Source of the DNA: Octopus sinensis | Lineage: Eukaryota | Direction: 5' to 3' | Length of the DNA: 16,469 nt | Assembly: GCF_006345805.1 (NCBI RefSeq) | Contig: NW_021825172.1 | Location: 1-16,469 of the forward strand | In this document: positions 3,016-15,760 of the stretch, piece after piece | Layout: the number at the start of each line of letters is the position of its first letter | Numbering within the stretch: the first letter of the stretch is position 1 | Made by a program: the position numbers and the translations under genes | Notes under the pieces: generated by a model | The model's database searches: none | What the model saw: only the letters and a program-made list of their open reading frames with translations | What the model was told of the DNA's origin: nothing

Positions 3016-3062
3016 ACTACTACTACTACTACTACTACTACTATTACTACCACCACCACCAA

Positions 3063-3104
<42 letters not shown>

Positions 3105-3106
3105 AG

Positions 3107-3137
<31 letters not shown>

Positions 3138-3154
3138 AGCTACTACTACTACTG

Positions 3155-3192
<38 letters not shown>

Positions 3193-3305
3193 GTTGTTTT
3201 GCTGCTGCTGCTCCTACCACTAGCACTATTACTACAACTACTACTACTGCAGCTGCTGCTAGAACAACAACAACAACAACAACAACTACTACTACTACTA
3301 CTACT
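3016..3305. repeat. (CTA)n microsatellite with (CCA), (CTG) and (CAA) interruptions
   Basis: Seen directly; produces the poly-T and poly-L pseudo-ORFs. Confidence 0.97.
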
Positions 3306-3319
3306 TGGCCAGTCTTACC

Positions 3320-3535
3320 CATTTCTCGGTATGACTGGCCACCCGGTCCGCCACCTCGTCCCAGTTGTTATCAACCTGGGGGTCGGGGCCAAATGAGACA
3401 CCAGACAGTGTCCGCCGACGCCGTCCCATGGCATCGCCCTACGTCTCCAGGAGCCCAACCACAAACCCACCAATTTGTCGGCGTTGATTTTAGCCCCTGC
3501 AACCGACTCATATTCCTTGAGGATGGTGCCGAGAT
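3320..3535 (-). pseudogene. Fragment of a related Tx1-type RT (end of RT domain)
   Basis: LKEYESVAGAKINADKLVGLWLGSWRRRAMP aligns with ORF2 IKSYEAVAGAKVNKNKSVGLQLGNWRGKLMP. After a frameshift, GVSFGPDPQVDNNWDEVADRVASHTEKW aligns with GVWFGPDLQIEKNWSEVAGKVTALTQTW. Confidence 0.9.
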
Positions 3536-3626: not shown

Positions 3627-3660
3627 AATAATAATAATAATAATAAACACGAGCAACAAC

Positions 3661-3872
3661 AATAATAATAATCTTTCCTACTACAGACACCAGGACTGAA
3701 ATTTGGGGACGGGGCGGTACTCGATAACATAGATCCCCAGTACTCAACTGGTACTTATTTTATCGATCTCGAAATGAGGAAAGGCAAAGTCGACTCCGGC
3801 GGAGTTTTAACTCAGAACCTAAAGACGGACGAAATATCGCTAAGCATTTAGTCCGCCGTGCTAACGATTCTG
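3661..3872 (-). mobile_element. SINE family B monomer copy
   Basis: Collinear with 3955-4119 and 4183-4351: GAAATTTGGGG, CCCCAGTAC..AACTGGTACTT, AAAGGCAAAGTCGAC, AACTCAGAAC, GTGCTAACGATTCTG. Confidence 0.85.
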
Positions 3873-3954
3873 ACTAACAACAACAACAACACCAACAACA
3901 ACAACAACAATAATAATAAATATATTAATAGGAACAACAGTGCTTTACAATATA

Positions 3955-4351
3955 CTTTTCTACTCTAGGCACAAGGCCCGAAATTTTGGGGGAGGGGGCC
4001 AGTCGATTAGATCGACTCCAGTACGCAATTGCTACTTCATTTATCGACCCTGAAAGAATGAAAGGCAAAGTCGACCCCGCCAGAATTTGAACTCAGAACG
4101 TAAAGACAGACGAAATACCTATTTCTTTACTACCCACAAGGGGCTAAGCACAGAGATGACAAACAAGGACAGAAAACGGATTAAGTCGATTATACCGACC
4201 CCAGTGTGTAACTGGTACTTATTTAATCGACCCCGAATGGATGAAAGGCAAAGTCGACTTCAACGGAATTTGAACTCAGGAAGTAACAGCAGACGAAATA
4301 CGGCTACGCATTTCGCCCGGCGTGCTAACGATTCAGCCAGCTCGCCGCCTT
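3955..4351 (-). mobile_element. SINE family B, dimeric/composite copy
   Basis: The block AGTCGATTA...TCGACCC...GAAAGGCAAAGTCGAC...GAATTTGAACTCAG...CAGACGAAATAC occurs twice (~4001-4119 and ~4183-4301) with different tails. B-box GAGTTCAAATTC on the minus strand. Confidence 0.88.
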
Positions 4352-4884
4352 CAATAATAAAAATACTAACAACAACAACAATAATAAAAATATCAATCAT
4401 AACTCTAGTGCTTTACAATATAACCATAAAAACAACGCGTTCGTGGGAGCGTATACGATCGATTATAATGAACGCAGTATCGGTCCTTTATGGGTCGTGT
4501 TAAATATAGCGCTGCAAGTGCAGTGTTTAATTTTCATCGATCAAATTAATTCTTCCCCCTCTGCTCGTTGATTTAACTAGTAATTATATAAATTTTGATG
4601 TTTCCTTGTCGTGTAATATCGTAATTCTAATAATGCATTGCAAGAAATTTGTCAATTTGATTTTTTAATTTTTTATTTTTACCCGTTATTTCACCTTCCA
4701 TTAAAAATTTCTTTAATATTATAAAATATCACTATTAATATTCATAAAAGTACTTGATATACCAACGCGAAAGAGCAATAAATAAATGAATGAACGAATG
4801 AAAAAAACAAATAAATATATATATAAATAAATGAATAACGAAAAAAATAATATGAATGTTTCATCAACAAAGTTTACGAATATA

Positions 4885-5265
4885 GGCGCAGGAGTGGCTG
4901 TGTGGTAAGTAGCTTGTTCAGTCCCATTGCGTGGCACCTTGTCTTCTACTATAGCCTCGGGCCGACCAAAGCCTTGTGAGTGGATTTGGTAGACGGAAAC
5001 TGGAAGAAGCCCGTCGTATATATGTATATATGTATATATGTATGTGTTTGTGTGTCTGTGTTTGTCCCCCAGCATTGCTTGACAACCGATGCTGGTGTGT
5101 TTACGTCCCCGTTACTTAGCGGTTCGTCAAAAGAGACCGATAGAATAAGTACTGGGCTTAGAAAGAATAAGTCCCGGGGTCGATTTGCTCGACTAAAGGC
5201 GGTGCTCCAACATGGCCACAATCCATGATTGAAACAAGTAAACAAGTAAAAGAGTAAAAGAGTAA
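4885..5265 (+). mobile_element. SINE family A copy with two short deletions in the head
   Basis: Starts GGCGCAGGAGTGGCTGTGTGG and ends in (GTAAAAGA)n. Lacks about 23 nt before GTTCAGTCCC and about 9 nt of CCTTGGGCAAGTGTC relative to the other copies. Confidence 0.92.
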
Positions 5266-9606: not shown

Positions 9607-9637
9607 GAGTGGCTGTGTGGTAAGTAGCTCGCTAACC
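9607..9637 (+). mobile_element. SINE family A, 5' piece of the copy interrupted by the LINE
   Basis: GAGTGGCTGTGTGGTAAGTAGCTCGCTAACC matches the head of the other family A copies (e.g. 4892-4915). Confidence 0.9.
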
Positions 9638-10297
9638 TTCGTCGAAGTCGGACGTGTTTTTTTGGCGGTGAGTCACACGTGTTATCGCACGTGGATAATT
9701 TTTCTGCTGTTCAACGTTTGTTGTTGAATATTTTTGTGAACTCTGTGAATTTTTGTACTTTTTCCCGGTGACGGGAAAAAGTTTGTTGTAAGACTGAAGT
9801 GATTATATGACTTTATTAATATTGTTGAACTTGTTAAAGCCGTTGTAGGCTTTATTGTCGTGCCCCCCCCCCGGCGGGGGTGGCATTTGAACTGTTATCC
9901 TTATTAAGAGAAAAAAAAAAAAAAAAATATTATAGGCTTTCTGTTTTTTTTGGGATAGCAACTGTTGTTGTGAAAAATAAACTTTAGCCATTGTAGGCTC
10001 TATGTGACATCCGCCCGTAGCACGGGCGAGATTTGAACTGTCGTCGTCGTGTTTTGGAAAAAATATAGGTTTCCCTTTTTGGGGATTTCGTTGTGGTGGA
10101 AATATTAATTTCAAATCGTCGTAGACTTTGTTGCTACGTCTCACCCCCCAGCGGGGGTGGGATTTGAACGTGGGACTGCGAACATTAAAAAAAAAAAAAA
10201 AAAAAAATTAATTAATTACTTTTGTCCTCTGTGAGAGGATAATTTCTTTTTTTCGAAAGGTCTCCCAGTTTTGTGGGAAACCAATTACTTTTCAACC
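9638..10297 (+). promoter_or_regulatory. LINE 5' UTR / putative internal promoter with tandem structured monomers
   Basis: DPE-like GGACGTG 9650-9656, AP-1-like TGAGTCA 9669-9675, two CACGTG E-boxes (9676-9681, 9688-9693), and three monomers each carrying ATTTGAAC (9885, 10031, 10162). Function is inferred. Confidence 0.65.
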
Positions 10298-11721
10298 ATG
10301 TCGGTTGAAATAATACATGAGAAATCTACTCTTGAAGAGAGCAATGTTGATGTTGGCAATTGCGCCAACGCTGTTAAAAAGTTTTCGGCAGTTGCAGAAG
10401 TAGCAACCGAAAATATAGATATCTCTGCAGACATGCTGGAGAGATATTTTAAAAGAATGAAGGAGGAGGGAGGTGATGTTGTGATATCGCCCTCCTCCAC
10501 CGTGCTAGAAACGGAAAAGAGGACCGTGGTGTTTAAAACCTTCTGCCCACAAGACAAAAGGTTTAAGCACTTCGGGAAGGAAACTATAGAAATATGCCTA
10601 GCTCCGATATGGAAGGATATAGTGTATATCTCGAGGGGACGGGCATACGGATCCGTTGAGGTTCAATTCTCAGAGGAAAAGGTGGCTCGCGGGCACTCCG
10701 TGTCCCCCCTGAAGACCAAGGAAGTGGTACTTTTTCCAACGTACATGGGGCGACGAACATCCCGTGTAAGGATTAATGAAATCCCACCCAAAGTAGACCC
10801 GAAAGAGGTGGTGGCCGGCCTGTTGTTTAATAGGACGGACCGGATAAACATATTACAGACCACATGTTCCGCCCAACGGCTGTGGTTAGGGCGGAACATA
10901 ACGGTTTTAATACAAGGAAAACAGGAGGACATTCAGGCCCTACCAGAGAGAGTACTCGTTGGGGAGAATGTGGCTCTTAGGGTACATGTGGAAGGCCGTA
11001 AGCCCACCTGTTACCATTGCGGAAAAAAGGGCCACATTCGAGCTGACTGTGAAGAAAAAAAAAAGTTGTTGCAAACACCAGGCCCCTCAAATAACCAAAA
11101 AAACCCCGCCCCCGCAAACACACCAGCCCCCACAAACACAAAACTCCCACCCCCGTTGTTGAGGTGCTAGTCCCCAAACAAAGCACAGAAAAACCCAGCC
11201 CCGGCACGCACAAGTCCCTACATAAACAAAATGACCCAACCCCCTCGGAAGACCCGGCACCAACGGAAAACACTGCGCCGAAAGAAACTGCCACCAGCCC
11301 CTCAGATAACACCATGGAGGTTTCAGAGGGTGGATTCACACCAGTGGAAAAGAAACGTTCCCGTAGACCTTCCCCACCCATATCCCCCACACAAAACAGA
11401 AAAAACGCACCACAGACAACAAAAAAGAAACCCTGCCCATCTGTCCCGGAAGAAAACAAAAATGCTATGTTAATAGAACACGATACGACAGACACGTATA
11501 CAAATGACGAAACTGTAAAACACAAAAATACTACGCTGAACATCCAACACCATGAGTGCAATGATAGAAGAACCCCTATACCGGGAACTAAAGGACAGGA
11601 ACCAGAAGGCCATATGGAAGATCGCGGATTTACCGAATTACGCGAAGAGAGAGAGGAGAAGAAGGGGACGGATCCACGTGTGGTGAGGTCATGCCCCACA
11701 TCTTCAAAGAAATGTAAGTAG
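10298..11721 (+). CDS. LINE ORF1 (gag-like nucleic-acid-binding protein with zinc knuckle), one frameshift
   Basis: ATG at 10298 in ACCATG context. CYHCGKKGHIRADC is a CX2CX4HX4C knuckle. ORF 10271-11170 joins ORF 11164-11721 if one A is added to the A-run at 11140-11143 (reading ...PAPTNTKTPTPVVEVLVPK...). Pro/Thr/Lys-rich tail, about 474 aa reconstructed. A 17-nt spacer precedes the ORF2 ATG. Confidence 0.85.
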
Positions 11722-11738
11722 AACCTTTACTTTTTGTA

Positions 11739-14700
11739 ATGGCATCTCTTAACCTTGGTTGTTTGAATGTGCGTGGTTTGAGTTCGAAGTGGAAGCAGGC
11801 GTGTTTCCTCGACGATCTCAGATCACATGATATGCATGTGATGGTTGCTACAGAGACCAAGCTGGACGGTCTACAAGCCTTCTCGCCTCTCCTGAATGAC
11901 TACGAGAAAATCATGTCTCCCGGTCAGACCGGAGGACGAGGGGGCGTAGTGGTACTGATCCGTAAAAGCTTGGCTCTGCAGACAAGTACAGTCTATGTGG
12001 ACCCTGAAGGTGGGCTGGTCGTCCTTGATGTGACACACAGCAGTAAGGCCTTCAGGTTGATCGGACTCTATGCACCTTGTGCTAGAGGCTTCCAAACTGA
12101 TTTTTATCGGCGCCTAGAGAACTTTCTCGTGACGTCGAAGACTTTAGTAGTATTAGGAGACTTTAATGCTATCGTTGACGTACACATCGATAGTGTTGGC
12201 TCGATCCATAGGAAAGTGAACTCACGTCTCGTGGACCTGCTTAAGCGGTTTCAGCTGGCAGATCGTTACAGACTTGACCATCCGAACGTCCCAGAGTGGA
12301 CCTGGATGAGTGGCGACGGAAGGTTCAAGTCTTATCTAGACAGGATAGTGATAAGAACTAGAGATAAATCTAGTTTTAGTTGTCCACAGCTTGTCCAGGT
12401 ACCCTATACGGACCATAGAATGGTCAAGTGTAGACTGGACATAGATAGCACACTAAAGATAGGAAACGGCTACTGGAAGCTAAACAAGTCTATTTTGACT
12501 TGTGAGGCATACCGCAGTCGGATTAAGGAGTTAGTGCAGAGGGCGTTAACCGGAGGAGTGGTTAACAACCGGTGGTGGTTCGCCCTGAAAAGAGCCATTC
12601 GATTCGAGTCCATTAGGTTTAGTAAGCAACTAAGACTAGATAGGGCTAGAATAGAAGAGCAATTAGCAAAGAAGTTAGAGGAGGCGTTGAGGTTGGGCTC
12701 TGCATCTCACATTTTGGCGGCGAGAACGGCATTAGACCGTCACCTCAAAACCAAACATGAGGGGTGTAGAATCCGGGCTAAAGTACGAACATTGGGCCGC
12801 GAGGGAATTAATGTTGCCGGATGGGCCCGTACGGTAGAAACCCAGCGTGGCAACAATTCCACAATTAGGTCTCTTGTTGATGGAAACGGATGCACGGTGA
12901 AGGAGCGGGACGAGATGTGTGAGGCACTTTACAAGCACTTCGCCGAGTTGTTCGGGAGGTGCGGGACGCTGGATCATGGTGAGGCCCTTAGGGACTTCCT
13001 GTCTGGTGGCCCGCGTCTCTCGGCACGAGAGGCTGAGTGCTGTGAGGGGCCAATCACAGCCGAGGAAGTAATCGAGGCGTTGGGCGAGTGCCCCGGGGAG
13101 AAGTCGCCGGGTCTCGATGGTCTGCCCTATGAGTTTTTTAAAAGTATGCCAGACTTGTTCGGACACCTGCTGGCTGGCGTCTTCGCCAACTGGCAGCAGA
13201 ATGGGAAAATTCCCAAGTCTGCGAGCCGGGGTGTGGTGACGTTAATCAGGAAGGACCCGAGCAAGGGGGACGAGATAGGCAACTTCAGGCCCATAACTCT
13301 GCTGAACACAGAGTTAAAGATTTTGGCCAATGTGCTGGCGAAAAGGTTGGCGCGGGTCGTGGATAAACTTGTCGGAGAAGCGCAAACGTGCGCTATCCCG
13401 GGCAGGACGATACACGACAATCTCCACCTTATACGCTATTCCTTAGAGCGGGTCGGGAAGCTTTCTGGCGCAGGAGGGGCACTGGTACATTTAGACCAGT
13501 CTAAGGCATTTGATAGGGTCGACCATCGGTACTTGGCGGCGGTCCTCGGGGAGGCTGGCCTGGGCCCGATCTTTCGAGGTTGGATCGCTGCTTTGTATAG
13601 CGACATCGAGTCTGTGGTCAAGGTGAACGGCTCTCTTTCGAAGCCGTTCAGGATCGAGCGTTCAGTCCGTCAGGGGTGTCCCCTGTCCCCGCTTCTATAT
13701 GTGTTGGCTCTTGAGCCTTTGCTACGGAAGTTGGAGGCAATAGGGGGCGCACCGCATGATCTATGGTGTGGAAGAGGAGCTACGGCGTACGCGGATGACA
13801 TCTCCATCATCGTGGCAGATGTGGACCAGCTTCCAGTGGTGGAAGAGGCCATCAAAAGCTACGAGGCGGTGGCAGGAGCAAAGGTGAACAAGAACAAGTC
13901 GGTCGGTTTGCAACTCGGCAACTGGAGGGGCAAGCTGATGCCGTCCAATAACGTAGTGGGGCGTTGGACGGAAGGTCCTGTTAAGCTGCTCGGAGTCTGG
14001 TTCGGGCCAGACCTCCAGATAGAGAAAAATTGGAGTGAGGTAGCCGGCAAGGTGACCGCTCTAACCCAGACCTGGTCTGGACGGCGTTATCCTTGCTAGG
14101 GAGGGCGGAGGTGGTGCAGATGTTCATAGCATCAGTAGTCACCTACCGCCTGACCGTGGTGCCTTGCCCCGATTTGTGGCTGAACAAGTTGGAGAGAATC
14201 CTTTTCCACTTTTTGTGGAAAGGAGGGAAGCCACTTGTAAAGCGCTCTGTCTGCTGCCAGAAACCGCTAAAGGGTGGGCTAGGGATGCCTTGGCTGAAGA
14301 TGCGAAAGGTCGCGTTAAGGTTGAGGCACCTCTGGCTTTACTTGGATGGAGAACAGGTGTGGTCACCGCACGTTCGGTTCTACTTTCCGCGATTAACGTC
14401 CTTAACGGACATTGGTAATTGGATCAAGCAGAGACCTAGGCTGGGGGACTGGCAATTGGAGTGCCGTCAGGCACTTCAACTACTCTCTCGGGCGGGCAAT
14501 GCCGGCAACAGGAGTTCCACGCGGATTTCTATAGCGGGTTAGTGGAGTTTAGTTAAGTCCGAAGACGCCTTGGGGGAGACCCTGGGCTACGATGAAAATC
14601 AGTTGACCAACCTGTTCCGGAGAACGTTCGGGCCGGGGTACCTGGATAATTACCAGAAATCCCTGGCCTGGCAGTGTTTCCGTGCGGCGTTACCTGTTCG

Positions 14701-15139
14701 CGACAAGCTGTCAAGGCACGGAAGTGCCGTCTCGCCGACATGTCCGCGATGTGAGCAGGAGGGGAAACCGTCTTGCACGCATTCGTGGAGTGTCCGGAGT
14801 TATCGGGACTGATTGCTTTCGCCGAACAACTGTTGTCAGTGAATGGAAGAGTACAGCTATCAGCGGAGTCTATCATTGAGATTGTGCCACCTCCTTTCCT
14901 CAGCAGGGAAAGGAAGGCTTGTTTTTCCTGCGTAGTAGCCATACTGAAAGAAACAGTATGGAAGACGTGCACGAAAGGTATAGTGACAGGTACCTTTGTA
15001 TCCGGCCAGGGGTTGGTTAACTTTTTCAGTTACCACCTCGGTAGTAAGATCAGGCTGGAGAAGGTGTCTGTCACGAGACATGTTTGCGAAAAGATGGAAG
15101 TCTGTAGCATGCAAGCTGCGTATATCTGGCACCAGGTAA
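11739..15139 (+). CDS. LINE ORF2: apurinic-like endonuclease + reverse transcriptase + C-terminal zinc finger, frameshifted in the last ~1 kb
   Basis: APE motifs LNVRGL, ATETK, GDFN, YLDRI, YTDH. RT motifs KSPGLDG, FRPITLLN, DQSKAFDRV, VRQGCPLSP, YADD, LLGV. Open for 786 codons, then continues through frameshifts near 14086 (RRLSLLGR), 14523 and 14551 (DFYSGLVEFKSED), 14761 (CPRCEQEGETVLHAFVEC = CX2CX8HX4C) and 15061 (SRDMFAKRW). Inferred stop TAA 15137-15139, about 1130 aa. Confidence 0.93.
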
Positions 15140-15345
15140 GTGTGGCCGGATCAAGAAGTAAAGGTTCTACCCAGATGGCTGGTATCCGTGCCCTACTGTA
15201 TAATAACAAATTTTTAAAACTTTATATTGTAAATATTATATATATTTTATTGTAATCACCAACGTTTTAAGCTACTACACCCTATATGTTTGTCTGTAAT
15301 TGTATGTCCCCTCTATGTAACGCCTTAATGGCGAATCTTTCATGA

Positions 15346-15351
15346 AATAAA
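15346..15351 (+). terminator. Polyadenylation signal at LINE 3' end
   Basis: AATAAA overlaps the start of the right-hand duplication; no poly(A) tail follows. Confidence 0.6.
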
Positions 15352-15497
15352 GTAGCTTGCTAACCAACCACATGGTCCGGGTTCAGTCCCACTGCGTGGC
15401 ACCTTGGGCAAGTGTCTTCTACTATAGCCCCGGGCCAACCAATGCCTTGTGAGTGGATTTGGTAGACGGAAACTGAAAGAAGCCCGTCGTATCTATG

Positions 15498-15535
<38 letters not shown>

Positions 15536-15760
15536 TATATATGTTGTGTGTTTATGTGTTTGTGTGTCTGTGTTTGTCCCCCCAGCATTGCTTGAAAACC
15601 GATGCTGGTGTGTTTACGTCCCCGTCACTTAGCGGTTCGGCAAAAGAGACCGATAGAATAAGTACTGGGCTTACAAAGAATAAGTCCCGAGGTCGATTTG
15701 CTCGACTAAAGGCGGTGCTCCAGCATGGCCGCAGTCAAATGACTGAAACAAGTAAAAGAG
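15350..15760 (+). mobile_element. SINE family A, 3' piece of the copy interrupted by the LINE
   Basis: Continues the consensus: B-box-like GGGTTCAGTCCC, ACCTTGGGCAAGT, central (TA)n/(TG)n tract, 3' tail AAGTAAAAGAG. Confidence 0.93.

Follow-up and report, generated by a model that had tools for sequence, protein, structure and literature searches.

The stretch of DNA analysed here (hereafter the window) comprises the 16,469 nucleotides of contig NW_021825172.1 of Octopus sinensis (assembly GCF_006345805.1) and contains a long interspersed element (LINE) lodged in the head of a short interspersed element (SINE) of a family designated A. The LINE, an L1/Tx1-type retrotransposon without long terminal repeats (LTRs), occupies positions 9638..15349 on the forward strand, as do all features given below for it and its SINE. 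It is full-length but decayed, measures 5,712 bp and lacks a poly(A) tail; from the junction sequence, its last base is ambiguous by at most 2 nt. Two 16-bp target copies with a single mismatch flank it, AAGTAGCTCGCTAACC on the left (9622..9637) and AAGTAGCTTGCTAACC on the right (15350..15365). The left copy, which has the C variant usual at full-length 5' junctions, is likely in part an element-borne leader. Upstream lies the left part of the SINE head (9607..9621), which includes the A-box-like motif TGGCTGTGTGG (9610-9620), and downstream the remaining SINE (15366..15760) with the B-box-like motif GGTTCAGTCCC (15380-15390), the body, an internal (TA)n and a tail extending to GTAAAAGAG. A previous sequence-only reading had placed the insertion between A-box and B-box, which proved correct as regards these box-like motifs. 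It also held that excision rebuilds an intact SINE, and this was true only in part. Removal of 9638-15365 yielded a SINE that aligned end to end with three window copies (85-88% identity) and across most of its length with a fourth (82%). Yet this SINE begins at 9607 (GAGTGG), without the approximately 9 first bases (ATAGGCGCA) found in most copies, and is thus only nearly intact.

The element opens with a 5'-terminal hairpin, TTCGTC-GAA-GTCGGA (9638..9652), of which one stem pair alternates between T-A and A-T among subfamilies, and closes with a 3' stem-loop, CGCC-TTAAT-GGCG (15321..15333), common to autonomous members and to those that code for the first open reading frame (ORF) only. An AATAAA (15346..15351) spans the junction, being composed of the element end GAAATA and the target AA. 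ORF1 (10298..11721) encodes a CCHC zinc knuckle (PF00098, E 4e-5) and is frameshifted near 11125-11212. ORF2 (11739..15136) encodes an apurinic/apyrimidinic endonuclease (APE; PF03372, E 8e-12), a reverse transcriptase (RT; PF00078, E 4e-29) with a YADD motif and a C-terminal region corresponding to a zf-RVT match in a sister copy. The catalytic N, E, Y, D, D and H of the human L1 endonuclease (L1-EN) all have aligned counterparts. Frameshifts were found near 14084, 14761 and 15059-15084, and a stop codon at 14540. The copy in the window is dead, judging from these lesions in both frames. A fully intact autonomous copy was not identified; L269 had the most open frames of those read, with long ORFs but a local stretch of altered sequence and substitutions at RT motifs. 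Downstream of the 5' T-run there is a splice-donor-like motif (GGTGAGT, window 9664-9673; GGTAAGA in the sister subfamily, L268-L272). The target itself contains GGTAAGT, and both motifs of the untranslated region could also pair with CTTACC. Contigs assembled from four DNA or unlabelled sequencing runs, representing four organisms, gave depth in 30 of 30 bins across the window, a depth that says nothing about presence/absence polymorphism of the insertion since the SINE swamps its joints.

The same genome was searched with a query made of the element's final 350 bp and free of target letters, and 40 of 447 candidate places were scored. In all 39 places other than the window, AAGTAG (at most one mismatch) directly followed the element end. 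Thirty-two of these copies ran straight into the SINE B-box, three reached the right half of the SINE after a second, stacked element (L064, L067 and L091), and two (L077 and L097) had the SINE head upstream while their right side was rearranged or deleted. On-target insertions thus amounted to 37 of 39 (about 95%), at one SINE position and in one orientation. The two off-target copies occurred at look-alikes (GCGT|AAGTGG and GGCT|AACTAG) matching the target over about 6-8 nt around the nick. Given the 55,098 exact empty sites (29-mers) counted genome-wide, or tenfold more, the chance of hitting this position is 1e-5 to 1e-4 per insertion. Flanks of element ends therefore did not scatter but lay at one SINE position far above background, which bears out the suggestion of the sequence-only reading that the family may use a very abundant SINE as target.

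Likewise, a protein search (13,277 candidates, 150 scored, 30 loci examined) led to the target motif at the element end in 27 of 30 loci; the other three comprised a SINE with a deletion, a SINE brought nearer through an internal deletion and a copy missing its 3' end. The main sister subfamily behaved alike: AAGTAG followed 81 of 90 exact 3' ends and, among the other nine, seven had a mutated target, one a look-alike and one unrelated DNA, so that 88 of 90 were on target. The 19-mer joining element end and target occurred 928 times exactly, and 29 of 30 inspected occurrences were true element ends, the last one lying within another repeat. Both the 928 junctions and the 55,098 empty sites are exact-match lower bounds (ratio about 1.6%). 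Nearly all copies of several subfamilies thus shared the same site and orientation, and at least several hundred genomic places hold the LINE family or its short derivatives at that position. A few false junction matches stem from another repeat with a similar motif (GTGAAATAAAGT...CTTGCTCAAG) inside its body (L154, L254:6316 and L261:6138).

Truncated copies indicated that these insertions were independent. A SINE head, scored at a threshold passed by 0.6% of random windows, was found directly upstream of 22 of 32 5'-truncated copies and of all seven full-length copies, and the 32 truncated copies displayed 29 distinct breakpoints. Since a copied composite would have lost the SINE head on 5' truncation, a hitch-hiking LINE-in-SINE composite was rejected. 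Flanks beyond the SINE were unrelated and spread over many contigs. One cluster on contig C30 (G000:C30:8849387-9346299) contained one full-length 5' junction in ten copies, of which seven are spaced about 12 kb apart, and is a tandem segmental repeat including the element; these 10 of the 50 junction matches were counted once.

The target SINE is about 400 bp long, dispersed and terminated by a simple-repeat tail. Its five copies in the window add up to 2,125 bases or 12.9%, in agreement with the earlier estimate of over a tenth. OK and OR2 are published octopus SINEs; a further one, OR1, is named in PMC4824008. The box-like motifs of the SINE head are at tRNA spacing and the head aligned weakly to tRNAs of the genome, best to Ala-TGC with close scores for others, while neither ARAGORN nor Rfam called a tRNA on it. 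The parent tRNA gene, proposed as an alternative target by the sequence-only reading, found no support: none of the flanks read showed an insertion in a true tRNA gene, and the target site in its SINE context was absent from 27 distinct tRNA sequences of seven amino-acid types, a small sample drawn from 30 of 46 Rfam hits in the genome. The motif AAGTAGCT does occur at the A box of tRNA-Phe. In its TTACC form, GGTAAGTAGCTTGCTTACC, the target is a near-palindrome (14 of 19 positions). When SINE variants AAGTAG and AAGAAG were compared, occupied sites numbered 85 T and 0 A, and empty ones 64 T and 3 A (p 0.08, with an occupied set partly retrieved by target letters); a single occupied A-type site was recorded elsewhere (L345). 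Near window 15376-15381, contigs of all four runs were dominated by a related SINE head, AAGAAG...TTCCC. The family A copy at window 4880-5265 displays a deletion beginning within the target (AAGTAGCTTG joined to TTCAGTCCC).

The duplication noted in the sequence-only reading indeed measures 16 bp on each side with one mismatch, but it is not a plain target-site duplication since the left copy of full-length insertions often follows the element. Left duplications ranged from none (or small deletions) to 16 nt in truncated copies, compared with 16-17 nt in full-length ones, and a 17-nt form, GCTTAACC, was found in 5 of 50 junctions. The two target copies were identical in only 8 of 25 single full-length insertions, a set that includes seven loci chosen because of their C variant (CTCG). 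This variant was present in 9 of 41 independent full-length left junctions versus 213 of 55,311 empty sites (0.4%; p about 6e-14), and all six single insertions with a left C displayed CTTG on the right. Discordance at the A/T position was also one-sided, with left A and right T six times and the reverse never. The left copy is therefore likely inherited in part from the element rather than taken purely from the local target. One may speculate that the C variant represents an older state of the SINE head, whose CpG normally decays to TpG. An HDV-like (hepatitis delta virus) ribozyme at the 5' end was considered but found no support: there was no Rfam match, and a loose descriptor of such a nested double pseudoknot matched 16 of 49 real and 24 of 147 shuffled sequences, with no consistent register among the matches. 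Folding of the leader with the 5' untranslated region paired the leader with GGCGGUGAGU in the minimum-energy structure, at a z-score of -0.52 that provides no evidence for such a structure.

Following full-length 5' junctions uncovered non-autonomous elements in the same site. ORF1-only elements of about 1.5-2.9 kb are devoid of ORF2, and their ORF1 shares 24-34% identity with that of autonomous members; internally deleted miniature elements measure 93 and 264 bp. All of these display the same 5' hairpin and 3' stem-loop as autonomous elements. The outer pair of the 3' stem was T-A in 67 and C-G in 25 of 100 ends, and the variable pair of the 5' hairpin T-A in 11 and A-T in 8 of 23 distinct sequences, counts that come from related sequences and not from independent events; in the 3' stem, two of five positions were moreover fixed by the search filter and are no evidence. 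Elements also stack in tandem with a target copy between each, up to at least five elements at L105. As stacking puts one promoter box kilobases away, an intact A-plus-B promoter is not needed for insertion. More short families with other 5' ends (AGGTTGCTTC..., GCACATGCGCAG... and CCCATGAG...) were noticed in the same site (L101, L102, L130, L137, L178, L247, L262 and L265), with the same 3' stem-loop where read.

On its predicted domains the element is a member of the L1/Tx1 group, with APE and RT in ORF2 and an RT nearer to L1 than to R2. The best relative of solved structure was human L1 ORF2p (PDB 8uw3 and others; E 2.7e-65, residues 6-867), ahead of R2 (E 6e-20), in a PDB set without other clades, and the closest named homologue came from Argonauta hians (64% over the RT region). 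The CCHC ORF1 (PF00098) was found in window and sister copies, with neither a Transposase_22 match nor a detectable RNA recognition motif, and an animal ORF1 of this type (type I) is consistent with Tx1 (PMC5203782). Membership of the Tx1 clade is likely; it fits the domain layout, although protein searches returned no match named Tx1 and our tree is without named Tx1 references.

Three families of this genome, about 75% identical in RT protein, differ in target: one uses the SINE position, one (CT)n and one mixed short motifs. The (CT)n relative was represented by 353 exact ends; (CT)n followed at 24 of 30 loci by a strict filter, most misses being CT-rich too, and CT repeats preceded 9 of 16 truncated copies scored. 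The mixed-site relative (68 ends) displayed mixed flanks with short recurrent motifs. Seven of its 30 copies read (L281-L310) occurred at one position in another repeat (e.g. L282, L292, L297-L299, L307 and L310), and many copies were clustered on contig C28 at 4.4-5.5 Mb. The LINE was also considered as the mobilising partner of the SINE, and this was discarded: the two had only three matches of 15-25 nt (E 0.29) and thus no meaningful sequence in common, which makes the element a parasite of the SINE, not its partner.

The reading that we favour, with a probability of roughly 0.8, is that a LINE lineage inserts at one fixed position of the SINE head, likely by means of its own APE endonuclease, which would recognise and nick that sequence so that the nick primes reverse transcription. 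The ORF2 protein would bind the 3' stem-loop, that of the derivatives in trans, and nick the bottom strand at 5'-CTACTT/ACCAC-3' or at most 2 nt away, a T/A step like that of L1-EN. The top strand would be cut 0-16 nt from the bottom nick, and the near-palindromic target could permit a symmetric top-strand cut 13 nt away. Full-length RNA would start with at least 8 nt of target-like sequence; the cDNA of this leader would anneal to the target and prime the second strand, leading to uniform 5' junctions of 16-17 nt with element-specific variants, whereas truncated cDNAs without leader would leave ragged junctions. By parting the A and B boxes, insertion would silence the SINE copy concerned, and tens of thousands of dispensable SINE sites would offer the element a low-cost target.

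Several points weigh against this reading. Ten of the 32 truncated copies had no scorable SINE head; some keep only its first bases, some have lost it, and both off-target copies are among them. By a hand count, the left side reproduced local target variants in 3 of the 4 truncated insertions that were informative and in 0 of 9 that were full-length, a contrast biased by a search pattern that forces a near-canonical left side. The RT tree, in which 11 SINE-targeting rows formed one group (Shimodaira-Hasegawa-like approximate likelihood ratio test, SH-aLRT, 99) adjoined by the two other families of this genome, was a quick version with L091 on a long branch. Finally, the endonuclease hairpin loops, which touch DNA in L1-EN, differ between the SINE-targeting family (WMSGDGRFKS) and the other two (WARNDGSSRS and WSNNDGSHRS), and these differences are only suggestive because a Tx1L loop grafted into L1-EN failed to transfer specificity (PMC1950540).

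Targeting might instead be guided by RNA, read-through SINE sequence at the RNA 3' end pairing with the target while the endonuclease is loosely specific. Read-through into the SINE is plausible for an element without poly(A) tail whose AATAAA spans the junction, and co-transcribed target RNA strengthens targeting in other elements (Kojima 2015, PMC4494074). We nevertheless consider this unlikely, since right flanks retained the local SINE variants TACC, AACC, TACG and TATC, an indication that read-through sequence was not copied in, and since off-target sites resemble the target over just the few nucleotides around the nick. Such guidance can also operate together with cleavage by a specific endonuclease.

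Retroelements that target tRNA genes can be tethered by RNA polymerase III (Pol III) factors, and a site fixed between A- and B-box-like motifs would suit an element recruited by such factors rather than by DNA sequence. This explanation is more doubtful still: stacked insertions have one box kilobases distant, off-target sites resemble the target sequence and have no boxes, and true tRNA genes were not hit among the flanks read. As for one chance LINE-in-SINE insertion later copied as a composite or by segmental duplication, the SINE share of the window and the genuine segmental repeat on contig C30 speak for it, but it is virtually excluded by the SINE heads directly upstream of truncated copies with many breakpoints, by unrelated flanks on many contigs and by a site common to different subfamilies and to non-autonomous families.

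Beyond endonuclease-directed insertion at the SINE head, we would put at even odds a wider picture in which a Tx1-type radiation of autonomous, ORF1-only and miniature elements has become obligately parasitic on the Pol III promoter of a dominant SINE. A heritable target copy at the 5' end of its RNA would preserve the older (CpG) state of the SINE head, and its close relatives would have moved to (CT)n or to mixed sites instead.

Tx1 elements were previously shown to target a piggyBac-type element, Mariner, Harbinger, LTR elements, U2, U5 and 5S genes, satellites and microsatellites; no SINE target is mentioned in the consulted part of this work (Kojima 2015, PMC4494074). Tx1L in Tx1D of Xenopus and Tx1-Mar in Mariner-N4_AMi are likewise APE-type L1/Tx1 LINEs inside another interspersed repeat, and Tx1-9_AMi in Harbinger as well as Tx1-8_Crp and Tx1-4_AMi in LTR elements display the same habit. 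The element described here works like Tx1L and Tx1-Mar, the SINE head being a new target type for a known targeting habit. Passengers on the same target, tandem stacking and the use of truncated copies as a test of independence are common to those systems and ours. The systems differ in that about 95% of copies here (37 of 39, with 88 of 90 in the sister subfamily) share a single nucleotide position within a SINE head, far above the 20% of flanks used as specificity threshold in that work, and in that the passengers here derive from LINEs, being either ORF1-only or internally deleted, instead of being SINEs headed by small nuclear RNA (snRNA). Keno (U2 snRNA genes), Kibi ((TC)n) and Koshi ((TTC)n) are also sequence-specific Tx1 elements of multicopy targets (PMC4494074), and the (CT)n-flanked relative resembles Kibi, but the target here, rather than a host gene or microsatellite, is itself a selfish retroposon.

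The left junctions find a parallel in R2 elements with target-derived 5' sequence, for which uniform junctions, inherited duplications with substitutions and a model of annealing between cDNA and target were described (Eickbush et al. 2013, PMC3774820); in the earwig, R2 contains 22 bp copied from the downstream target, with 3 substitutions (PMC3774820). R2 has a single ORF, a restriction-like endonuclease and a leader made by an HDV-like ribozyme, in contrast to the APE and the two ORFs of the present element, for which no ribozyme was supported. HAL1 (half-L1) is a comparable non-autonomous element with ORF1 only (PMC5753468), but the ORF1-only families here are site-specific and their ORF1 is far from that of autonomous members. 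Human L1 differs from the present element in its promiscuous targeting (TTTT/AA; PMC1950540), its poly(A) tail and its ORF1 of the Transposase_22 type. In Octopus vulgaris, 80 L1-Tx1 families were annotated (PMC13282606); the words "target" and "nested" are absent from the text and one supplement of that source. A literature search, which left most subscription papers and Repbase Reports outside, brought up no LINE reported to target a SINE in any organism, cephalopods included, and a Repbase entry on this target may exist.

Other repeats were noticed in the window. A fragment of a related LINE RT (3319-3521, reverse strand; 53-58% identity to the sister ORF2) lies beside a long (ACT)n array (3016-3305). 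A second repeat family with (AAC)n or (AAT)n tails occurs at 2228-2330, 3627-3954 and 4001-4422, with copies nested or stacked around 3900-4375. Elsewhere in the genome, at least six tRNA-Cys genes or pseudogenes are clustered within 3 kb (L197, G000:C12:22959503-22962574).

The finding extends the theme of transposons as targets to SINEs, in this case with a LINE that would disable the promoter of the SINE it enters. Because the left copy is partly inherited, apparent target-site duplications are unusable for dating insertions of such elements, and in cephalopod repeat annotation composites of this kind would be broken up or given wrong labels. LINEs with site specificity are wanted as tools for gene insertion, and the origin of APE endonuclease specificity is unresolved; three close families with three target habits in one genome make domain swaps direct. 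If the proposed reading is true, these families would form a natural series for mapping target change in APE endonucleases, and the leader would be the first R2-like target-homology leader known to us in an APE element.

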